A stretch of 27,879 bases of DNA, from UHGV virus genome UHGV-2100961. One strand, written 5' to 3'. This document shows, piece after piece, positions 17,985-27,879 of this stretch. The translations under genes and the position numbers were made by a program. This DNA is from a virus. The notes beneath the pieces are model-generated. The model did not search any database. It had not been told where the DNA came from and was given only the letters and a program-made list of their open reading frames with translations. Each line of letters begins with the position of its first letter. Position 1 is the first letter of the stretch.

Positions 17985-18038
17985 GCTTTTTAAACGCCTT
18001 TAATATCAGCGTTCCCGCACGGGGGCAATACTGCCCCC

Positions 18039-18386
18039 ATGAAAACAACCTCAGTATTCTGGCAACCAGCCCTGCAGGCTCCCGGCGAAATTGTCCGGGG
18101 GCTGGATGATATCCGGCAGGCGATTCAAATTATCCTGCGGACTCCCCGCGGCAGCGACCCGCATCGCCCGGAGTTCGGCAGCAATCTGCATCTTTATATC
18201 GACTGGCCTGTAGACCGGGCCATTCCGCATGTGGTGCGCGAATCCGTCGATGCCATCCGGCGCTGGGAGCCCCGCTGCCAGCTTATGTCAGTTAAACCCG
18301 CCGTCGACGGCGAACATCTTACGCTCCGGGTGAGCTGGAAAGGCTCAGACGGACAGACCCGGACTCAGGAGCTGCTATGGCGCTGA
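18039..18386 (+). CDS. Baseplate wedge protein (gpW / gp25-like)
   Basis: 115-aa ORF between the V-like and J-like genes; typical size and position. Confidence 0.7.
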   Translation: MKTTSVFWQPALQAPGEIVRGLDDIRQAIQIILRTPRGSDPHRPEFGSNLHLYIDWPVDRAIPHVVRESVDAIRRWEPRCQLMSVKPAVDGEHLTLRVSWKGSDGQTRTQELLWR

Positions 18387-19480
18387 CAGAACCCGATTTT
18401 ATTGAACGCGATGCCGACAAAATCACGGCAGAAATGATTGCGAAGTATGAAGCGGATACCGGCAAAACGCTGTACCCGGCACAGGCAGAACGTCTGCTGA
18501 TTGATCTGTGGGCCTATCGCGAAATGCTGGTCAGGGTTGCGGTACAGGAGGCAGCAAAGCAGAATCTGGTCGCCTTTGCCCGTGAGCCGATGATTGATTA
18601 CCTCGGTGAACTGGTTGGTGTATACCGTCTTGCCGCGCAGCCTGCCACCACCACGCTCCAGTTCTCCGTAGATGAGGCACTGGCCATTGATGTGCTGATC
18701 CCGGCAGGCACCCGCGTCAGCGCTTCCGACAGCGTTATTTTTGCCACCGATACAGATGTGGTACTGAAGGCCGGATTGCTGCTGGTCAATGTCACGTCCA
18801 CCTGTACCGAACCCGGTACCGCTGGTAACGGCTGGCAACCTGCGCAGGTCAGTCAGTTACTCGATGAGATTGATAACGTCGACCTGCTGGTGAGCAATCT
18901 GACGGCCAGTTCCGGCGGTTCAGAACAGGAAGACGATGACAGGCTCCGGGAGCGTATCAGGCTGGCCCCGGAGTCATTCACCAATGCCGGAAGCCGTGGC
19001 GCATACCGCTTTCATGCCATGCAGGCCCATCCCAACATTGTCGATGTTGCTGTGCTTTCCCCGGTTCCCGGGACCGTAGATCTGTATCCGCTGCTCAGTA
19101 CCGGTCTGCCGGACGGCGGTGTTCTCACGCTGGTAGAGAGTTTCTGCTCTGATGAGAAAGTCAGGCCACTCACTGATACAGTGCGGGCTAAAACACCAGT
19201 GAAGGTGGATTACACCATTGAAGCCAGGATTACGATCTATCGTGATCAGGATGCCAGGTCTGTAAAAGATGCCGCTAACAGCGCCATACAGAACTGGGTG
19301 GCATCACGTGCCGCCACGCTGGGGCGCGATATTGTCCCCAGCCAGATTATCAGTGCATTGTCCGTTTCCGGGGTGTACCAGGTTGAACTGGTGACACCGG
19401 CACTGCGGGTGGTGGCAGAAAACGAATGGGCAAACTGTACGGCAATCACTCTTAACATGACTGGAGTGTCTGATGACTGA
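18377..19480 (+). CDS. Baseplate J-like protein
   Basis: 367-aa ORF overlapping the W-like stop; followed by the gp48-like gene and then the tail fibre. Confidence 0.75.
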   Translation: MALTEPDFIERDADKITAEMIAKYEADTGKTLYPAQAERLLIDLWAYREMLVRVAVQEAAKQNLVAFAREPMIDYLGELVGVYRLAAQPATTTLQFSVDEALAIDVLIPAGTRVSASDSVIFATDTDVVLKAGLLLVNVTSTCTEPGTAGNGWQPAQVSQLLDEIDNVDLLVSNLTASSGGSEQEDDDRLRERIRLAPESFTNAGSRGAYRFHAMQAHPNIVDVAVLSPVPGTVDLYPLLSTGLPDGGVLTLVESFCSDEKVRPLTDTVRAKTPVKVDYTIEARITIYRDQDARSVKDAANSAIQNWVASRAATLGRDIVPSQIISALSVSGVYQVELVTPALRVVAENEWANCTAITLNMTGVSDD

Positions 19481-20051
19481 GCCATTACAACTCCCGCCAC
19501 CGCTTGAGGGTGATATCAGTCTCAGGACGCTGGGAAGACTGGCAGGACGGCTGGATAACATCGACCTGAGCGTACTGATGGTCTTTCTCGTCGATATCGT
19601 CGACAGTTCCGCGCTGCCATGGCTGGGCGAGCAGTTCTCACTGTCTGGCGATGGCTGGGAGCTGGCGGAATCGGACGATGTTCGCCGCATGCTTATAAAA
19701 GCAGCCATCGAACTGCACCGGTATAAAGGGACGCCGTGGTCAATCCGGGAAGTTATCCGCCGTTTTGGCTTTGGTGAAGTGGATCTGATTGAAGGCACAG
19801 GTCGTCTCAGTTACGACGGCAATCGCAGCTATAACGGACTGTTTGTTCATGGAGATGCAGCCGCCTGGGCAGTTTATCGCGTTATTCTGAAACAGCCCAT
19901 TACTAACGATCAGGCCGCGATGCTGCGTCAGACGCTGGCTGCATTTGCACCGGCCCGCTGCCATCTGGCCAGCCTGGAGTATCAGTCTGTGGCCATTCGC
20001 TATAACAATACTGCCATCCATGATGGCAGTTATAACCACGGGAGCAGTTGA
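19473..20051 (+). CDS. Baseplate/tail protein (Mu gp48-like, P2 gpI-like)
   Basis: 192-aa ORF overlapping the J-like 3' end; immediately upstream of the tail fibre. Confidence 0.7.
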   Translation: MTEPLQLPPPLEGDISLRTLGRLAGRLDNIDLSVLMVFLVDIVDSSALPWLGEQFSLSGDGWELAESDDVRRMLIKAAIELHRYKGTPWSIREVIRRFGFGEVDLIEGTGRLSYDGNRSYNGLFVHGDAAAWAVYRVILKQPITNDQAAMLRQTLAAFAPARCHLASLEYQSVAIRYNNTAIHDGSYNHGSS

Positions 20052-20053
20052 TT

Positions 20054-21349
20054 ATGGGAAACCTGAATGAAACAGAAAAGTGGGAAGAAAATATCTATCA
20101 ACTGGAGACATCAGATCCGGTTCTGGGTGGTGCAGACGGGATATCAAATCGAGCCCCCCGGCAACTGGCAAACAGGACGAAATGGCTGAAGAAAAAAACG
20201 GAGGAAGCCGCACAGTCACTGGCTGAACACGTACGTTCCCGTAACCACCCGGACGCGACACTGACAGCTAAGGGGTTCACCCAACTGAGCAGTGCCACCA
20301 ACAGCACCTCTGAAACGCTGGCCGCCACACCAAAAGCCGTCAAGGCTGCATACGACCTTGCAGCCGGCAAGGCGCCCGTCAGCCACACTCACCCGTGGAG
20401 TCAGATAACGGGAGTGCCTGCGGCTTCACTGACGGCAAAAGGCACCGTACAACTGAGCAGCGCCACGGACAGTCAATCAGAAACTGAGGCTGCCACGCCG
20501 AAGGCGGTCAAGGCTGCATACGACCTTGCAGCCGGCAAGGCGCCCGTCAGCCACACTCACCCGTGGAGTCAGATAACGGGAGTGCCTGCTGCCTCGCTGA
20601 CGGCAAAAGGCACCGTACAATTGAGCAGTGCCATCAACAGCACGTCTGAAATACTGGCCGCCACACCGAAAGCGGTCAAGGCTGCATACGATCTGGCAAA
20701 CGGAAAACAACCGGCAGATGCCACGCTCACTGCTCTGGCAGGACTTGCCACTGCAGCAGATCGGTTGCCTTATTTTACCGGAGCAGACCGCGCAGCGCTG
20801 GCAACCCTTACAGCTATTGGTCGCGCTATTATCGCTAAGGGCAGTATAAAAGATGTCCTCAATTACCTTGGTTTGGGGGAAGGCTCTGCATTGCCTGTTG
20901 GTGTACCGGTTCCATGGCCCACCGCCACACCGCCAGCAGGCTGGTTACAGTGCAACGGAGCTACGTTCACCAAAGAACAATATCCTGTTCTGGCCAGAGT
21001 CTACCCGACCCTCCGTCTTCCCGATTTGCGCGGTGAGTTTATCCGTGGATGGGATGACGGACGAAAGATTGACACCGGGCGTGCCCTGCTAAGCAGCCAG
21101 AGCGGAATGATTGAGAAACACCGTCATATTGTTGTTGCCAATGATGGTTACGACACAAAAGATGAATGGGAACTGGCTGCGATTTTCAAAAAAACATACA
21201 CACAAGGACGAGGACTTGATGCCACAAATACAGGAGGGAGTCTGACCCCATCACCAACACTTCATTCGCGAGGGAGTATCGGTAATACTGGCGGGAGGGA
21301 AACCCGTCCACGAAATATTGCCTTTAACTACATTGTCAGGGCGGCCTAA
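20054..21349 (+). CDS. Tail fibre protein (constant N-terminus, repeat shaft, C-terminal tip cassette 1)
   Basis: ATG 20054 (RBS GGGAG); three 56-aa shaft repeats; C-terminal region has the LPDLRGEFIRGWDDGRK motif and ends ..RPRNIAFNYIVRAA. Confidence 0.85.
   Translation: MGNLNETEKWEENIYQLETSDPVLGGADGISNRAPRQLANRTKWLKKKTEEAAQSLAEHVRSRNHPDATLTAKGFTQLSSATNSTSETLAATPKAVKAAYDLAAGKAPVSHTHPWSQITGVPAASLTAKGTVQLSSATDSQSETEAATPKAVKAAYDLAAGKAPVSHTHPWSQITGVPAASLTAKGTVQLSSAINSTSEILAATPKAVKAAYDLANGKQPADATLTALAGLATAADRLPYFTGADRAALATLTAIGRAIIAKGSIKDVLNYLGLGEGSALPVGVPVPWPTATPPAGWLQCNGATFTKEQYPVLARVYPTLRLPDLRGEFIRGWDDGRKIDTGRALLSSQSGMIEKHRHIVVANDGYDTKDEWELAAIFKKTYTQGRGLDATNTGGSLTPSPTLHSRGSIGNTGGRETRPRNIAFNYIVRAA
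20261..20700 (+). repeat. 168-bp (56-aa) in-frame tandem repeats in the tail-fibre shaft, about 2.6 copies
   Basis: Anchor CAAGGCTGCATACGA at 20341, 20509 and 20677 (period 168); encoded units LTAKG.. QLSSA.. AATPKAVKAAYDLAAGKAPVSHTHPWSQITGVPAAS. Confidence 0.85.
20868..20947 (+). repeat. Direct repeat copy A (80 bp, identical to 21353..21432) at the constant/variable junction of the fibre gene
   Basis: TTGGTTTGGGGGAAGGCTCTGCATTGCC..CAGGCTGGTTA read identically at both positions; about 90% similarity continues for another ~120 bp. Confidence 0.85.
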
Positions 21350-21352
21350 ACG

Positions 21353-21432
21353 TTGGTTTGGGGGAAGGCTCTGCATTGCCTGTTGGTGTACCGGTTCCAT
21401 GGCCCACCGCCACACCGCCAGCAGGCTGGTTA
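21353..21432 (+). repeat. Direct repeat copy B (80 bp, identical to 20868..20947) at the 5' end of silent tip cassette 2
   Basis: Same 80-mer begins 4 nt after the fibre stop codon. Confidence 0.85.
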
Positions 21433-21870
21433 AAGTGCGACGGGCGCGCCTTTACAAAAGAACAATATCCTGTTCTGGCCAGAGCCTACCCGACCCTCCG
21501 TCTTCCTGATTTACGCGGTGAGTTTATCCGTGGATGGGACGACGGGCGCAAAGTTGATACAGGACGTAAGTTGCTGTCCGCACAAGGGGCAACGCTGTTA
21601 AGAACAGCAATGCTGGATTATTATAACCAGGACACTACGGGAACCTCGGGGATAGTCGGCATGGGATTCAACAATGAAGATTCCATTACAGACCTTCGTG
21701 AGGGCAGCTTTAAAATGCCGGACGGGACAACATTCAGCGATCCTGTCATAGTAATGTCAGACAATGGTATGCAGGCTACTATTCTGACCTCTATCAGAAG
21801 CGGGTATGCGAAGGGTATCACTGTCAGACCCCGTAGCATTGCACTTAATTACATTGTGAGGGCAGTTTAA
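21353..21870 (+). other. Silent alternative tail-fibre C-terminal tip cassette 2 (no ATG or RBS of its own)
   Basis: Open frame encoding GEGSALPVGVPVPWPTATPPAGWLKCDGRAF..LPDLRGEFIRGWDDGRKVDTGR..RPRSIALNYIVRAV, paralogous to residues ~275-432 of the fibre; only a TTG codon at 21358, no SD. Confidence 0.7.
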
Positions 21871-22484
21871 TGAGTAACACTGCAGTTCTGGATGAAAACG
21901 GTATCGCCACTGTAGCGGGCGATATCACTGTATATCACTATGACGAGGAAACCCGGGAATACACCTCATCCTCTGTGGAGTATCTCGCCCTTGGGGTGGG
22001 TACTCCGGCACATTCGTGCGCCGATGCACCGCCGGAGGCAATTTCGGGTTACGTGGTTTGTCGGACTGCCACGCTGAACGGGTGGGAGCATGTGCCTGAT
22101 CACCGCGGCGAGACGGTATACAGCACGGAGAACGGTAACCCCGTTCTGATTACCCAACCGGGTGATTACCCGGCGGACACCACCACAAAACAGCCAGCCA
22201 CGCCATGGGATACCTGGAACGGTGAGGCGTGGGTAACCGATACTGAACGGCAGCGAGCCGCAGAACTGGAGGTTGCCAGACAGCAACGCCAGCAACGGGT
22301 GAAACAGGCGATGGCGTCCGTCGATCTTATCAACCTCAAACTGCGTGCTGGTCGCAGTCTGAAACCAGAAGAAACGGCAAAACTGAACGCCGTGCTGGAT
22401 TATATCGACGAGCTGAACGCACTGGATATCAGCAAGGCACCTGAAATCAGCTGGCCGGAAGCGCCACTGGCACTTGCCAGTTGA
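21870..22484 (+). CDS. Tail fibre assembly protein (Tfa/U-like chaperone)
   Basis: 204-aa ORF; ATG overlaps the cassette-2 stop (TAATG); N-terminal MSNTAVLDENGIATVAGDITVYHYDEETREY and Gln/Arg-rich helical C-terminus typical of Tfa proteins. Confidence 0.75.
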   Translation: MSNTAVLDENGIATVAGDITVYHYDEETREYTSSSVEYLALGVGTPAHSCADAPPEAISGYVVCRTATLNGWEHVPDHRGETVYSTENGNPVLITQPGDYPADTTTKQPATPWDTWNGEAWVTDTERQRAAELEVARQQRQQRVKQAMASVDLINLKLRAGRSLKPEETAKLNAVLDYIDELNALDISKAPEISWPEAPLALAS

Positions 22485-22490
22485 ACGGTA

Positions 22491-22826
22491 TCACGCCGCC
22501 CTCACGATATAGTTAAACGCGATATTGCGGGGGCGGGTTATGTTAAAGAATGCTCCGTTTAATTCGGCTTTTGCGCGACTGTTTGTTTCACCCAGCATTG
22601 CGTACCACAAATAATCGCTACGGTAATTCCCCGCAAACACCTTATCGCCGCCATAGTCAATATTATTTCCGTTACTCATGTACGAGATATCAAGCGCAGA
22701 ATCGTTATCGTCATGACCGCCGACCAGTGTACCTTTCTGCCATGAAAGCAACTTACGCCCCTCGTCAATCTTGCGCCCGTCATCCCATCCACGGATAAAC
22801 TCACCGCGCAAATCGGGAAGACGGAG
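22491..22826 (-). pseudogene. Inverted tail-fibre tip cassette 3, 5'-truncated by the IS21-family element
   Basis: Minus-strand frame encodes ..LRLPDLRGEFIRGWDDGRKIDEGRKLL..RPRNIAFNYIVRAA*; the 50 nt at 22777..22826 are the exact reverse complement of 21011..21060; homology stops at 22826/22827. Confidence 0.7.
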
Positions 22827-22891
22827 TATTAGACGTCAACTAGTTTTGCCGACTCGCGCCAACTATACTGGCCGCACCCTTCAGTGCGACA

Positions 22892-23647
22892 TCAAGTCGC
22901 GCTTGTTACTGCCTTCGCTGTCTTTTTCCTGTAGCTTTCACCTTTCAGTTCGAACATATATCCGTGATGGATCAGCCGGTCTGCCGCCGCCACCGCCATA
23001 GTCTCATCCACGAAGATGCTGCCCCACATGCTGAACGGATGGTTACTGGTTATCACCAGGCTCCCACGTTCATAGCGATGCGCTATTAACTCGAACAGTA
23101 CTCCCGTTTCGGCGCTGTCGCGTTTGACATAGCCAAGATCATCCACCACTATCACCCGGTAGCGATCCAGTTTCAGTAGCAGCTCATTCAGTTTCAACTG
23201 CGCTCTGGCTTTACGTAGTTCCTGCAACAACTCTCCTGCGCTGTAGAACCGGGCCCGGTAGCCCTGGCCTACTACGCCATCCACGATCGCTGCCGCCAGA
23301 TGGCTTTTCCCCAACCCGCTGGCTCCGAACAGCAGAACGTTTTCTCCTGCATCAACCCAGTCTGTCGTTTCACAGAGTTGCCGGAACTGAGCTCCATTCA
23401 GTTCCGGCACCTGACTGAAGTCGTATTCGCTTAGCGTTTTGGCAACTGGCAACCGGGCCTCCTTTTTATAACGACGCAGTTTTTCACTCTCGCGCCACAG
23501 GAGTTCTTCATTGCATAGCGTCAGAAGATAGCGCGATGGTGTCCAGCCTTCTGCCAGTGCTCGTTTTTCCAGAGCGTGCCATTCAGCTCCAACTCGTGTC
23601 AGGCGTAGTTTACGCAGGCTGCGTTCAAGGTGATGGATATTGCTCAC
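22892..23647 (-). CDS. istB: IS21-family ATP-binding helper protein IstB
   Basis: 251-aa ORF with Walker A (GASGLGKSH) and Walker B (VIVVDDLG) motifs and the C-terminal ..LKGESYRKK.. segment typical of IstB. Confidence 0.85.
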   Translation of the reverse strand: MSNIHHLERSLRKLRLTRVGAEWHALEKRALAEGWTPSRYLLTLCNEELLWRESEKLRRYKKEARLPVAKTLSEYDFSQVPELNGAQFRQLCETTDWVDAGENVLLFGASGLGKSHLAAAIVDGVVGQGYRARFYSAGELLQELRKARAQLKLNELLLKLDRYRVIVVDDLGYVKRDSAETGVLFELIAHRYERGSLVITSNHPFSMWGSIFVDETMAVAAADRLIHHGYMFELKGESYRKKTAKAVTSAT

Positions 23648-25143
23648 TGCGAACCGCCCTTGCCACGCAGTAGTTGCTCATAACTGCTCAGGTTATGCTG
23701 TTTCACATTGACTACCGGCAACGCCTTTTCCTTTATACCCAGGAAGCGCATCAGCCGGTGCAGATCCACGTTTCCCGGGGTATTCAGCATCTGCTCCATA
23801 CCTTTTGCCACGACTGAGATATCGTCGTATCCTGCAGCCAGTTTCAGAGCATGTACCATCAGCCTGCCTGCCATGTCGGGTTCCAGATGATTACATAAGC
23901 GACGCCACAGCCTCCGCCATTCATCGTCTGGCAGGATGTCATTTCTCAGCGTTGCATGGCAGAACGCACCGGGCTTTTTTGCCAGACTGTCGATCACATG
24001 TCGGAAGTCGATACGACGGGCCCGCGTCTTCCCTTTTTCTGGTCTGACACGTGGGCAGCTCATGACCTCGCTGCTGCCAACGTAACAGCTCAGACGATCG
24101 TCCCATAACCGGACCCGTAACAGTTGACCTACAAGCCGGGAAGGTACGCTGTAGACGACGTGCTTCACATTGATGGTACTGCTGCGGCTAACCCTCACAG
24201 TCAGCTCATCATAGTCAGCACTGCGACGAAGCGGCAGCGGTTTCAGATGAAGACGTTCTTCCTTGACCAGATCCTGATTGTTACGGTTGTGCCGCATAAC
24301 CTGCTGAGTGATGAAGGCCTGATATTCTTCTATGGTGCTGAAGTCGTTACTGCCCCGCAGTATCAGCGCCTGACAGATACGCCTTTTCAGATGTCCGTGG
24401 GCACTTTCAACCGAGCCATTTTCGTGGCCCCGACCGGCATTATTGTGTACGCCCTGCATTCCGTAGTGCTGACAGAGAGCAGCATAACGCTCAGTCAGCT
24501 CGCGGCGTCCATCTTCGCCCTGTTGTTTCCATGCTGCCCTCAGGCTGTCCGTTTTATGTTCTACCGGCACTCCGCCCAGTTGTCCGAGGGCTTCCTGCAG
24601 ACCTTCAGCCAGAGCAGAGAAGCTCTCACCACCCAGCACAACCCGCATCCAGCTCCAGTGGCTCCATTCCAGACGGAAGTGATACAACTTATGCGCCAAC
24701 AACTTACCGGCGATGGTGACAACTACACCTTTCAGTTCAGTAAAGTCCGACAGACCTCGCAGACCGGGCTGATGTCGCTGGCGGAACATGACCTCCTGCT
24801 CTGCACCATACTGTAGCTTCCATTCGCGGACCCGCCGTTGCATTGTTCTTCGAAGGCTGTTGGGGTACTGGCCGGGATATTTATCCTGTAGCATCTCCAG
24901 CAGAGTTGTTGGTGTCAGAGCCGGCCTCTCTTTCAACAGAGGAACAAGCATGCTGTCCCACACAGCTTCCAGAGGATCTTTGCGTGTGCGCCAGTGCCGA
25001 ACACTGTTTTTTGCCCACTCTCCTTTTTCGATCCGACGACCAGAACGGACTGAGATACCAGCCTTCATGGCCGAGATATGCTGAGTTATACCTTTCTTAC
25101 GCTGAGTCATATAGTAACTGACCTGAGAAGTATTGAGCGTCAC
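23644..25143 (-). CDS. istA: IS21-family transposase IstA
   Basis: 499-aa ORF immediately upstream of, and overlapping by 4 nt, an IstB-like ATPase gene; operon architecture diagnostic of IS21-family elements. Confidence 0.8.
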   Translation of the reverse strand: MTLNTSQVSYYMTQRKKGITQHISAMKAGISVRSGRRIEKGEWAKNSVRHWRTRKDPLEAVWDSMLVPLLKERPALTPTTLLEMLQDKYPGQYPNSLRRTMQRRVREWKLQYGAEQEVMFRQRHQPGLRGLSDFTELKGVVVTIAGKLLAHKLYHFRLEWSHWSWMRVVLGGESFSALAEGLQEALGQLGGVPVEHKTDSLRAAWKQQGEDGRRELTERYAALCQHYGMQGVHNNAGRGHENGSVESAHGHLKRRICQALILRGSNDFSTIEEYQAFITQQVMRHNRNNQDLVKEERLHLKPLPLRRSADYDELTVRVSRSSTINVKHVVYSVPSRLVGQLLRVRLWDDRLSCYVGSSEVMSCPRVRPEKGKTRARRIDFRHVIDSLAKKPGAFCHATLRNDILPDDEWRRLWRRLCNHLEPDMAGRLMVHALKLAAGYDDISVVAKGMEQMLNTPGNVDLHRLMRFLGIKEKALPVVNVKQHNLSSYEQLLRGKGGSQ

Positions 25144-25200
25144 GCCATTTCCTGTTGGATCATGTAAATGACACTCAGGTTACAAAACCGGCCAGAATAA

Positions 25201-26226
25201 TCGGCGCCAGGCGGACTGAGTTATTGTCGTCTCATAGTAACCGATCCCGCAGAAGCGTCCCGGCTGATTCGTCGGGGACATCTGACTTATACTCAGGCCC
25301 GTAATATCACCCGGTTCGGGACCATCGAATCGGTCACTTATGATATTGCCGAGGGTTCGGTTGTCAGTCTGGCGGCCGGAGGGATCAGTTTTGCCCTGAC
25401 GGCATCGGTCTTCTGGCTCAGCACCGGCGATCGCGATGCTGCCCTGCAGACAGCTGCTGTCCAGGCAGGAAAAACCTTCCCCCGCACACTGGCTGTCTAC
25501 GTCACAACCCAGCAACTCCACCGGCTCAGTGTTGTTCAGGGTATGCTGAAGCACATTGATTTTTCGACTGCCAGCCCGACTGTCCGACTGGCTCTTCAGA
25601 AGGGGACCGGTGCAGGAAATATCAGTGCCCTGAACAAAGTAATGAAGGGTACGCTGGTGACATCTCTGGCACTGGTAGCTGTCACAACCGGCCCTGACAT
25701 GATCAAAATGTTGCGGGGACGGATCTCCGGTGCGCAGTTCATCAGGAATCTTGCCGTGGCATCTTCCGGTGTGGCAGGTGGAGCTGTCGGGTCAGTGGCG
25801 GGCGGGATACTGTTCAGTCCACTGGGACCATTTGGTGCACTGACAGGGCGTGTGGTTGGCGGTGTTCTGGGGGGAATGATTGCCTCCGCTGTATCAGGAA
25901 AAATTGCCGGAGCGCTGGTTGAAGAAGATCGCGTCAAAATTCTGGCAATGATTCAGGAGCAGGTGACATGGCTTGCCGGCAGTTTCCTGCTGACCGGACA
26001 TGAGATTGAAAATCTGAACGAGAATCTGGCCCGTGTTATCGATCAGAATGCTCTGGAGATCATTTTCGCCGCCGGTATACAACAACGGGCCGCGACCAAT
26101 ATGTTAATCAAACCACTGGTGGTCAGTATCATCAGGCAACGCCCCGTCATGGAATATGATGCATCCCATCTCGGCAATATGGTTAACCGGCTGGAAGAAG
26201 CATTACCCCCGGAGTTACCGGCATAA
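25201..26226 (+). CDS. Glycine-zipper membrane protein ORF, probably 5'-truncated at the IS junction (alternatively a 227-aa protein from ATG 25543)
   Basis: Frame is open for 114 codons upstream of the first ATG back to the IS edge with no in-frame ATG/GTG/TTG; contains GVAGGAVGSVAGGILFSPLGPFGALTGRVVGGVLGGMIASAVSG (GxxxG repeats); no family assigned. Confidence 0.45.
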   Translation, partial: SAPGGLSYCRLIVTDPAEASRLIRRGHLTYTQARNITRFGTIESVTYDIAEGSVVSLAAGGISFALTASVFWLSTGDRDAALQTAAVQAGKTFPRTLAVYVTTQQLHRLSVVQGMLKHIDFSTASPTVRLALQKGTGAGNISALNKVMKGTLVTSLALVAVTTGPDMIKMLRGRISGAQFIRNLAVASSGVAGGAVGSVAGGILFSPLGPFGALTGRVVGGVLGGMIASAVSGKIAGALVEEDRVKILAMIQEQVTWLAGSFLLTGHEIENLNENLARVIDQNALEIIFAAGIQQRAATNMLIKPLVVSIIRQRPVMEYDASHLGNMVNRLEEALPPELPA

Positions 26227-26301
26227 CGGCTATTCTGCGCCTTTTACGCTTTATCACCTGATTTGTCAGTGTCATCGTCATGACTCAGAGAGGTAAATAC
26301 C

Positions 26302-26757
26302 ATGATTCACCTGTTCAAAACCTGCATGATTACCGCCTTCATTCTGGGGTTAACGTGGTCTGCCCCACTCCGGGCACAGGATCAACGTTACATCAGTATA
26401 CGCAATACAGATACGATATGGCTCCCGGGAAATATTTGTGCTTACCAGTTCCGGCTGGATAATGGCGGAAACGGTGAAGGATTTGGCCCCCTCACCATCA
26501 CTCTGCAACTCAAAGACAAATATGGTCAGACGCTGGTGACCAGAAAAATGGAAACGGAAGCTTTTGGTGACAGTAATGCCACGCGAACCACAGACGCATT
26601 TCTGGAAACGGAGTGCGTGGAAAATGTCGCCACAACCGAAATCATTAAAGCAACTGAAGAAAGTAACGGCCATCGTGTCAGTCTGCCGTTATCGGTTTTC
26701 AATCCCCAGGACTACCATCCACTGCTGATTACCGTTTCCGGAAAAAACGTTAACTGA
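26302..26757 (+). CDS. Small secreted/periplasmic protein of unknown function
   Basis: 151-aa ORF with RBS AGAGAGG; N-terminal signal-peptide-like sequence (MIHLFKTCMITAFILGLTWSAPLRAQDQ); followed by a strong terminator. Confidence 0.65.
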   Translation: MIHLFKTCMITAFILGLTWSAPLRAQDQRYISIRNTDTIWLPGNICAYQFRLDNGGNGEGFGPLTITLQLKDKYGQTLVTRKMETEAFGDSNATRTTDAFLETECVENVATTEIIKATEESNGHRVSLPLSVFNPQDYHPLLITVSGKNVN

Positions 26758-26781
26758 TCCCTGAAGTCAGTTTCATGCTTC

Positions 26782-26820
26782 AGCCTCTGTCACAACGCGT
26801 GGCAGAGGCTTTTTATTTAT
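26782..26820 (+). terminator. Rho-independent terminator
   Basis: AGCCTCTGTC / GGCAGAGGCT 10-bp stem with 9-nt loop, followed by TTTTTATTTAT. Confidence 0.75.
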
Positions 26821-26839
26821 CAGGAGAAAACAGATATGC

Positions 26840-27879
26840 GTAAGCGTGCAGCAAGAACCGTATTGACGGGGATGTGTTATTCAGTCGGCAGTGCTACGCG
26901 CCAGGGGAGCAGTTCGCCGACCCGGTTTATCGGCCAGTCGGCTATGACGTCAAGGACATAGCGGAGGTAGCTTTCTGGCTCCACTCCGTTCAGTTTGCAC
27001 GTCCCGATCAGGCTGTACAGCAGCGCTCCCCGCTCTCCTCCATGATCCGAACCGAAGAACAGGTAGTTTTTGCGGCCCAGACTGACCATCCGCAACGCAT
27101 TTTCAGCGATGTTATTGTCCGCCTCAGCCCAGCCATCATCTGCATAGTACGTCAGCGCCGGCCACTGGTTCAGGGCGTATGCGAACGCTTTCGCCAGTTC
27201 TGAGTGTCGCGACAGGGTTTTCATCTTTTCACGCAGCCAGCTTTCCAGGGATTTCAGCAGCGGTTTCGTTTTCAACTGACGTTCGGCAAGGCGCTGCTCC
27301 GCCGTCATTCCCCTTATCTCTGCCTCGATGGCGTACAGTTCGCCGATCCGTTTCAGCGCTTCCTCCGTCAGGGCTGACGGGGTGCGAACGTGCACATCGT
27401 GGATTTTACGGCGGGCATGAGCCCAACAGGCGGCTTCCGTTATCCGGTCATCCCGGTACAGCTCGTTGAACCCGGCGTATGCATCCGCCTGCAGTACACC
27501 ACTGAACCCCGCAAGATGGGTCTGCGGATGGATGCCTTTTCTGTCCGGGCTGTAAGCGAACCACACCGCCGGCGCCAGCGTTGACCCGGCGTTACGGTCG
27601 TCACGAACGTAGGTCCATAACCGCCCGGTCTTCGTTTTCTTATTGCCTGGCAACAGCACCGGGACAGGCGTGTCATCAGCATGGAGCTTACCGTCAGTCA
27701 GCACATAGTCCTGAAGCGCCTCTTCCAGCGGAGACAGCAGCCGGCAGCATGCATCCACCCAGCCCGACAGCAGTGAACGGCTCAGCTCCACACCTTGCCG
27801 ACCGTATATTTCTGACTGGCGATACAGCGGGGTGTGCTCTGCATACTTCGAGGTCAGCACGCGGGCCAGCAGCCCCGGT
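26840..27879 (-). mobile_element. IS66-family element, terminal ~1 kb (continues beyond the window)
   Basis: Terminus begins GTAAGCGTGCAGCAAG at about 26840, 37 nt from the end of a TnpC-like transposase ORF that runs off the window edge. Confidence 0.7.
26877..27879 (-). CDS. IS66-family transposase (TnpC-like), C-terminal portion; N-terminus outside the window
   Basis: Minus-strand ORF of at least 327 aa ending ..[22 protein letters not shown]..; recognised as the IS66-type transposase C-terminal region; frame still open at the window edge. Confidence 0.75.

Follow-up and report, generated by a model that had tools for sequence, protein, structure and literature searches.

The locus considered here raises the question of whether the reading frame at positions 25201–26226, which abuts an insertion sequence, belongs to a new membrane-protein gene or to a known gene of which only a part is left. 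It lies in the viral genome UHGV-2100961, a stretch of 27,879 nt that we refer to as the window. An earlier note on this DNA described the frame as a probably 5'-truncated gene that had been broken by the adjacent IS and was missing its N-terminus, and could not place the product in any family. Our analysis leads, with high confidence, to the conclusion that the feature is the 3' end of the E. coli gene yeeR cut by ISEc10, that is, an ordinary pseudogene fragment and not a new gene.

The yeeR remnant occupies positions 25237–26226 on the plus strand and corresponds to nt 1528–2517 (codons 510–838 and the stop codon) of the 2517-nt gene. Compared to the intact yeeR of strain 504239, it is 99.8% identical over 990 nt and collinear through the stop codon, with two nucleotide differences, a single amino-acid change, T591P (25480–25482), and no frameshifts or stops. 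In strain 504239 this sequence forms the 3' end of a gene encoding an 838-aa “hypothetical protein,” which has agn43 (flu) on one side and an IrmA-family gene on the other; the DUF905, DUF932, antirestriction, yeeS, yeeT, and cbeA/cbtA genes belong to the same island. Megablast of the region 25150–26300 against 5426 complete E. coli genomes identified the sequence from 25237 onward in 2157 of them, and 1801 of the 5426 contain yeeR over at least 80% of its length. Full-length yeeR alleles and the window share the gene, the downstream neighbor irmA, and the type of island, with only the last 39% of the gene retained in the window. Thus, the earlier suggestion of a gene broken by an IS and truncated at the 5' end is borne out by the retention of codons 510–838 of an 838-codon yeeR and by a true ISEc10 site with a 6-bp duplication in E. 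coli MS 21-1 (see below), and the intact homolog that the note had proposed to look for in related genomes does exist, together with its neighbors agn43 and irmA. The 5' part is indeed gone, but the loss is larger than a missing N-terminus, amounting to 61% of the gene, with the cut inside the conserved YeeR_C unit; and a family can be assigned to the product, namely YeeR (Pfam PF27347).

The adjacent element is ISEc10 of the IS21 family, 2410 bp in length, located at 22827–25236 on the minus strand; prophage homology stops at 22826, immediately before it, and yeeR homology begins immediately after it. Its terminal inverted repeats, TATTAGACGTCAA at the left end (22827–22839) and TTGTCGTCTCATA at the right end (25224–25236), are imperfect and pair as TATTAGACGTCAA / TATGAGACGACAA. 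Two genes are encoded on the minus strand, istA for the 499-aa transposase (23644–25143; ORF, PGAP annotation, and the Pfam domain Mu-transpos_C_2) and istB for the 251-aa helper ATPase (22892–23647; ORF, Pfam IstB_IS21 with E 9.5e-62), and PGAP names both of them “IS21-like element ISEc10 family” in MS 21-1. With istA and istB, inverted repeats at its ends, and a short duplication of its target, the element has all the features used to define the IS21 family.

The duplication is seen in MS 21-1, where nt 1417–1533 of yeeR lie to the left of the IS, and nt 1528–2517, to the right of it. ISEc10 inserted into yeeR at nt 1528–1533, duplicating GTAACC; the right copy of this 6-bp target-site duplication is found in the window at 25237–25242, and the left copy is outside it. 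Exactly the same junction between the IS and yeeR is present in five of the 5426 complete genomes (EC1, MS 21-1, KE40, OZ546993, and GMM076). A separate deletion in MS 21-1 fuses the 117-bp left piece of yeeR to a fragment of iutA, and the right piece is annotated there by PGAP as a pseudogene “missing N-terminus.” In EC1 a further break, made by IS629 at nt 2375, interrupts the remnant, and istA is truncated too, so the decay of this locus is continuing. At the same time, as the remnant in the window is almost unmutated, either the insertion is recent or the piece is not wholly neutral.

The left flank of ISEc10 in the window is not yeeR, but the tail-fibre-assembly end of a P2/Mu-like prophage. 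This left junction is present in only one of the 5426 complete genomes, MS 21-1, where it sits within a prophage at 3.54 Mb, 2.7 Mb from the yeeR junction of the same genome (0.84 Mb), and the two ISEc10 copies are in inverted orientation. The prophage-side copy in MS 21-1 has its own 6-bp duplication, ACGGAG. In the window the flanks do not match each other (...CGGAG on the left, in the region 22816–22826, and GTAAC... on the right), and a simple insertion with matching flanks was rejected, as the flanks hold halves of different duplications, ACGGAG and GTAACC. The window thus joins the flanks of two ISEc10 copies, which can be explained either by an IS-mediated inversion or by chimeric assembly. 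Homologous recombination between two inverted copies of ISEc10 would invert the intervening segment and leave hybrid flanks such as those in the window, and short-read assembly collapsing the 2.4-kb IS repeat would create the same hybrid.

In the latter case the adjacency of the IS and the gene would be an assembly artefact, with the collapsed repeat falsely linking prophage DNA to the yeeR remnant. We regard this as a distinct possibility, although we lean away from it. The whole arrangement is found in no complete E. coli genome, no locus covering 80% of the region 18000–27879; the two junctions in the complete genome of MS 21-1 belong to different, distant ISEc10 copies; and the IS is longer than short reads. 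On the other hand, the two copies in MS 21-1 are mutually inverted, and a real inversion yields exactly this product. The cut in yeeR at 25237 is real under either explanation, because it is found in five complete genomes, and the question of an artefact touches the left flank only and not the identity of the remnant.

The tail-fibre cassette region of the prophage (approximately 20282–21501) is also arranged differently from that of MS 21-1. A part of it matches, in the reverse orientation, an alternative tail-fibre segment of MS 21-1 located beyond the IS, beside a recombinase gene, which suggests invertase-driven cassette switching.

The gene at the equivalent position in K-12 is yeeR (b2001) of the prophage CP4-44, known to be truncated (PMC6480617). 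It matches the long gene over nt 1–1521 only (aa 1–507), and the K-12 reference YeeR has no residue in common with the piece in the window (aa 510–838). K-12 YeeR, encoded at 2074779–2076311 of NC_000913.3, and the window remnant are near-exact complements of each other, the K-12 break at nt 1521 and the ISEc10 duplication at nt 1528–1533 being two independent breakpoints 6 bp apart in a 2517-nt gene. Such proximity could be a coincidence or could reflect a fragile site.

In CP4-44-type islands the genes agn43, yeeR, and irmA, in this order, constitute a single OxyR-repressed operon, in which YeeR is uncharacterised (PMC4807369), and this cluster is often disrupted by IS elements (PMC9431211). 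In the window, the gene order under the OxyR/Dam-controlled agn43 promoter is not preserved: irmA is present, agn43 and its promoter are absent, and ISEc10 and prophage DNA lie upstream. The known IS-disrupted operons of pathogenic E. coli, e.g., the one in PAI-CFT073-pheV (Moriel et al. 2016, Prieto et al. 2022; PMC4807369, PMC9431211), represent the same cluster and the same type of event, with the IS located between agn43 and irmA. Unlike these operons, the window has ISEc10 within yeeR, neither agn43 nor the 5' part of yeeR nearby, and a second IS, of the IS66 family, 80 bp past irmA.

The irmA gene (interleukin receptor mimic protein A; 26302–26757, plus strand) is intact and was identified by Pfam PF18673 (E 2.8e-38), by the PGAP name “IrmA family protein,” and by its place in the described operon (PMC4807369). 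It is followed by a strong terminator-like hairpin with a 12-bp stem (26782–26810) and a T-run (26782–26820 for the two together, plus strand), and then by the IS66-family element (26840–27879, minus strand), which runs off the end of the window and was recognized by Pfam DDE_Tnp_IS66 in the ORF 26877–27860 (E 1.6e-102). Normally irmA is followed by the DUF905 gene; here the similarity to the island extends no further than 26839, where the start codon of DUF905 has its third base, and the IS66-family element begins there, having inserted directly after the DUF905 ATG. With ISEc10 upstream and the IS66-family element downstream, the yeeR'–irmA segment is thus a 1.6-kb relic of the island between two IS elements. 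Though intact, irmA is cut off from the agn43 promoter (the intergenic stretch between the yeeR remnant and irmA is 26227–26301), and this vaccine-candidate gene would here rely on its own intergenic promoter, as described in strain 042.

The open frame is slightly longer than the piece of yeeR that it contains. Frame translation places a TAA stop at 25198–25200 on the plus strand, after which the frame is free of stops up to the TAA at 26224–26226; according to the translation and the junction alignment, the first 12 codons (25201–25236) are derived from the IS and are in the yeeR frame by chance. The earliest in-frame start codon after 25201 is the ATG at 25543, with no ATG, GTG, or TTG between these positions, and the 114 stop-free codons preceding it have a probability of about (61/64)^114 = 0.004 in random sequence. 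The only start-codon ORF reported in this frame by the ORF finder spans 25543–26226 (plus strand) and would yield 227 aa starting from the internal Met612.

The retained part of YeeR contains a hydrophobic helix at residues 549–570 (25354–25419, plus strand), identified by a Kyte-Doolittle scan and corresponding to the helix 539–572 in the structural model, and a glycine-zipper hairpin at residues 683–737 (25756–25920, plus strand), delineated by GxxxG counts with a shuffle test and by hydrophobicity. Ten GxxxG motifs are present in the remnant, eight of them at residues 687–730 (full-length numbering), where glycine content is 27% compared to 10% overall; shuffles of the same sequence contain on average 3.4 such motifs (sd 1.6), giving p ~2e-4 for the observed ten. 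AlphaFold2 models the remnant as helical throughout, with pLDDT of 85–95 in the last ~100 residues, and modeled alone the remnant is a compact helical domain (pTM 0.64), while pLDDT of the glycine zipper is below 50 in both structural models. The features described in the earlier note are therefore largely reproduced: the 114 open codons before the first ATG, the GxxxG-rich segment, and the helical domain of about 100 aa following it hold as stated, and the frame is open from 25201, but its extension to the IS edge needs correction, since the first 12 codons belong to the IS and the gene part begins only at 25237.

The remnant resembles the Gly-zipper modules PF13488 and PF20721 in having a GxxxG-rich hairpin with a helical domain after it, and the two give weak matches over residues 687–783. 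Gly-zipper_Omp (PF13488) scores 16.3 bits against the cut-off of 25 and matches one of 44 family members, and the C19orf12-like family (PF20721) scores 17.2 bits against the cut-off of 30 and matches three of 44. The remnant looks like these modules in composition or motif only, and we do not count it as a member of either. Overall, the matches to C19orf12, Gly-zipper_Omp, ssl2009, and a tape-measure protein, obtained in Pfam, NCBIfam, and PHROGs with both the fragment and full-length YeeR, were rejected as sub-threshold and driven by the glycine zipper. The sole match in a sequence profile search of PDB with the full-length family was to a tape-measure protein, over a stretch rich in glycine, and comparison with solved structures yielded no resemblance to either model beyond generic helical bundles. 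No similarity, structural or in sequence, was found to characterised pore-formers or to C-terminal domains of pore-forming toxins or effectors.

The family to which the remnant belongs is large. Exhaustive phmmer search with the 329-aa fragment retrieved 877 clusters (at 50% identity) with E ≤ 1e-3 and 602 representatives with E ≤ 1e-10, and the recent Pfam family PF27347, “YeeR_C,” is the precomputed label on all homologs. Homologs of 800–850 aa occur across Proteobacteria. The best 120 database relatives, most of them of this length, come from Enterobacteriaceae, Pseudomonas, Shewanella, Methylomonas, Burkholderiales, and Xanthomonadales; those that are shorter proved to be fragments located on short contigs. 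One candidate for a short stand-alone relative, a 480-aa protein (P0188), was rejected as a partial gene on a 1.5-kb contig. The domain order in YeeR is an N-terminal multi-TM region, a winged-helix pair, a CxxC...CxxxC motif, a GHGFAAE alpha/beta domain, and the helical glycine-zipper module. The GHGFAAE-type domain is observed in YeeR proper, in most stand-alone forms of ~500 aa, and in long fusion proteins; in 20 of 22 relatives checked it is located about 100 residues upstream of the point where the fragment starts, so the cut falls inside a conserved unit. The homology of the window to YeeR extends over the C-terminal conserved unit (the 990 nt described above, with 99.8% identity, nt 1528–2517), and of the complete ~838-aa architecture only residues 510–838 are present; the window sequence is a gene fragment and not a member protein of the YeeR family.

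Intact YeeR is an uncharacterised inner-membrane protein, and a literature search returned neither a functional study of it nor any mention of PDC-M09, the candidate system discussed below. Our best guess, drawn from homology and gene context only and given a low probability, is that intact YeeR may be a membrane-anchored, phage-defence-like protein of a conflict system. In such a protein the glycine-zipper helices of YeeR_C would disturb the membrane once the upstream domains were triggered, and the membrane-targeting effector would be controlled by variable sensor domains. The PADLOC model PDC-M09B matches 26 of 44 diverse members of the YeeR family, with E values down to 1e-14, and its two regions of collinear homology cover the GHGFAAE alpha/beta domain and the helical/glycine-zipper module; the fragment in the window matches it with E 5e-4, and the PADLOC match lies partly within the low-complexity glycine zipper. 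A separate PDC-M09A gene is not present, and the A model is matched by three members, in the zipper region at the C-terminus of each. PDC systems are candidates that came to notice by their position inside BREX, DISARM, or type I RM loci (bioRxiv 10.1101/2024.01.29.577857). PDC-M09 is a two-gene candidate with a protein of ~480 aa, whereas YeeR has an extra 400-aa N-terminal region with membrane, winged-helix, and zinc-ribbon parts, and lacks a PDC-M09A partner.

The genomic context of the module varies. A 546-aa YeeR_C protein is encoded directly after type I HsdR, YgjP, and Schlafen/AlbA_2 genes. A 1335-aa fusion protein (P0204) combines YeeR_C with a microbial PARG macro-type domain and an ADP-ribosylglycohydrolase, and two others (P0159 and P0166) combine it with Sel1 repeats, which hints at a link between the module and the sensing or processing of ADP-ribose in some lineages. 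One YeeR_C protein, of 562 aa, shares an operon with a Sel1 protein. Stand-alone yeeR genes of other genera are located beside RES-Xre or HicAB toxin-antitoxin pairs, transposases, or a TIR-domain gene, with no conserved neighbor. Among the points against the conflict-system guess is that yeeR of E. coli sits in an adhesin/immune-mimic operon and not in a recognised defence island. We consider it rather unlikely that the 877 clusters (at 50% identity) make up a widespread but unrecognised family of membrane-acting conflict or anti-phage proteins with YeeR_C as the effector module.

The operon context itself points to another role, in which intact YeeR would be an accessory factor of the Ag43/IrmA surface system, acting in export, anchoring, or regulation, and the remnant would be a relic of an adhesion operon. 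It is consistent with co-transcription of yeeR with agn43 and irmA under OxyR regulation (PMC4807369, PMC8614746) and with the levels of YeeR varying together with those of Ag43 in the membrane proteome (PMC8144685). Yet IrmA is secreted without YeeR and Ag43 (PMC4807369), K-12 has functional Ag43 despite only a truncated yeeR, and neither an autotransporter nor IrmA is encoded next to the homologs of YeeR in Pseudomonas, Dyella, Methylomonas, and Stenotrophomonas, which makes this role improbable.

Whatever intact YeeR does, the remnant in the window would lack most of what surrounds its C-terminal part: the phase-variable agn43 promoter driving yeeR, the start codon, all six transmembrane helices of the N-terminal part, the winged-helix pair, the zinc ribbon, and the greater part of the conserved GHGFAAE alpha/beta domain. 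What is kept of YeeR_C is its helical membrane half. The invariant residues removed by the cut are C333–C367 (CxxC...CxxxC), H410, E415, N418, D422, D442, R443, Q451, and K453. A crude scan with the sigma-70 consensus found no promoter-like site on the plus strand of the region 24900–26900, read-through from within the IS being possible. The sole purine-rich stretch before the ATG at 25543 is AGGG, at a distance of 1 nt, too near to serve as a Shine-Dalgarno sequence, and Met612 is not conserved outside enterobacteria. As far as can be judged from these signals, the remnant is most likely neither usefully transcribed nor translated into a working protein, and its expression as a free glycine-zipper membrane protein appears less likely still than the conflict-system role of intact YeeR. 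Homologs of about 227 aa that start at the equivalent of this ATG and have a promoter of their own, which according to the earlier note would make the upstream open frame a matter of chance, were not observed, the homologs being 800–850 aa long and Met612 unconserved.

The notion that the 227-aa ORF is a real gene for a free-standing glycine-zipper membrane protein, e.g., a toxic or pore-forming half of YeeR freed from the regulatory N-terminal domains, is highly improbable: the ORF is intact, gene callers report similar short products elsewhere (P0123, 223 aa and 99% identical, and P0146, 263 aa), and the region, except for the zipper, models as a confident helical fold, but the start is internal and unconserved, with the AGGG stretch misplaced and no promoter-like site, well-sampled homologs on long contigs are either 800–850 aa in length or have the GHGFAAE domain upstream, PGAP calls the piece a pseudogene, and the same remnant is further truncated in EC1.

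The remnant of yeeR is a finding of an already known kind: a pseudogene created by an IS within a mosaic island of E. coli, and part of a cluster for which frequent disruption by IS elements has been reported. Its annotation should read yeeR' and not a new membrane-protein gene, and the mixed flanks of ISEc10 flag a large inversion or a misassembly in the window. As the K-12 reference YeeR is devoid of the region present here, work on K-12 is uninformative about the conserved YeeR_C module. If the conflict-system reading of intact YeeR were true, phase-variable aggregation would be linked to defence through the agn43-yeeR-irmA operon; the homology to the PDC-M09 candidate, together with the domain fusions, provides a hypothesis open to testing for a protein that roughly one in three complete E. 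coli genomes encodes.
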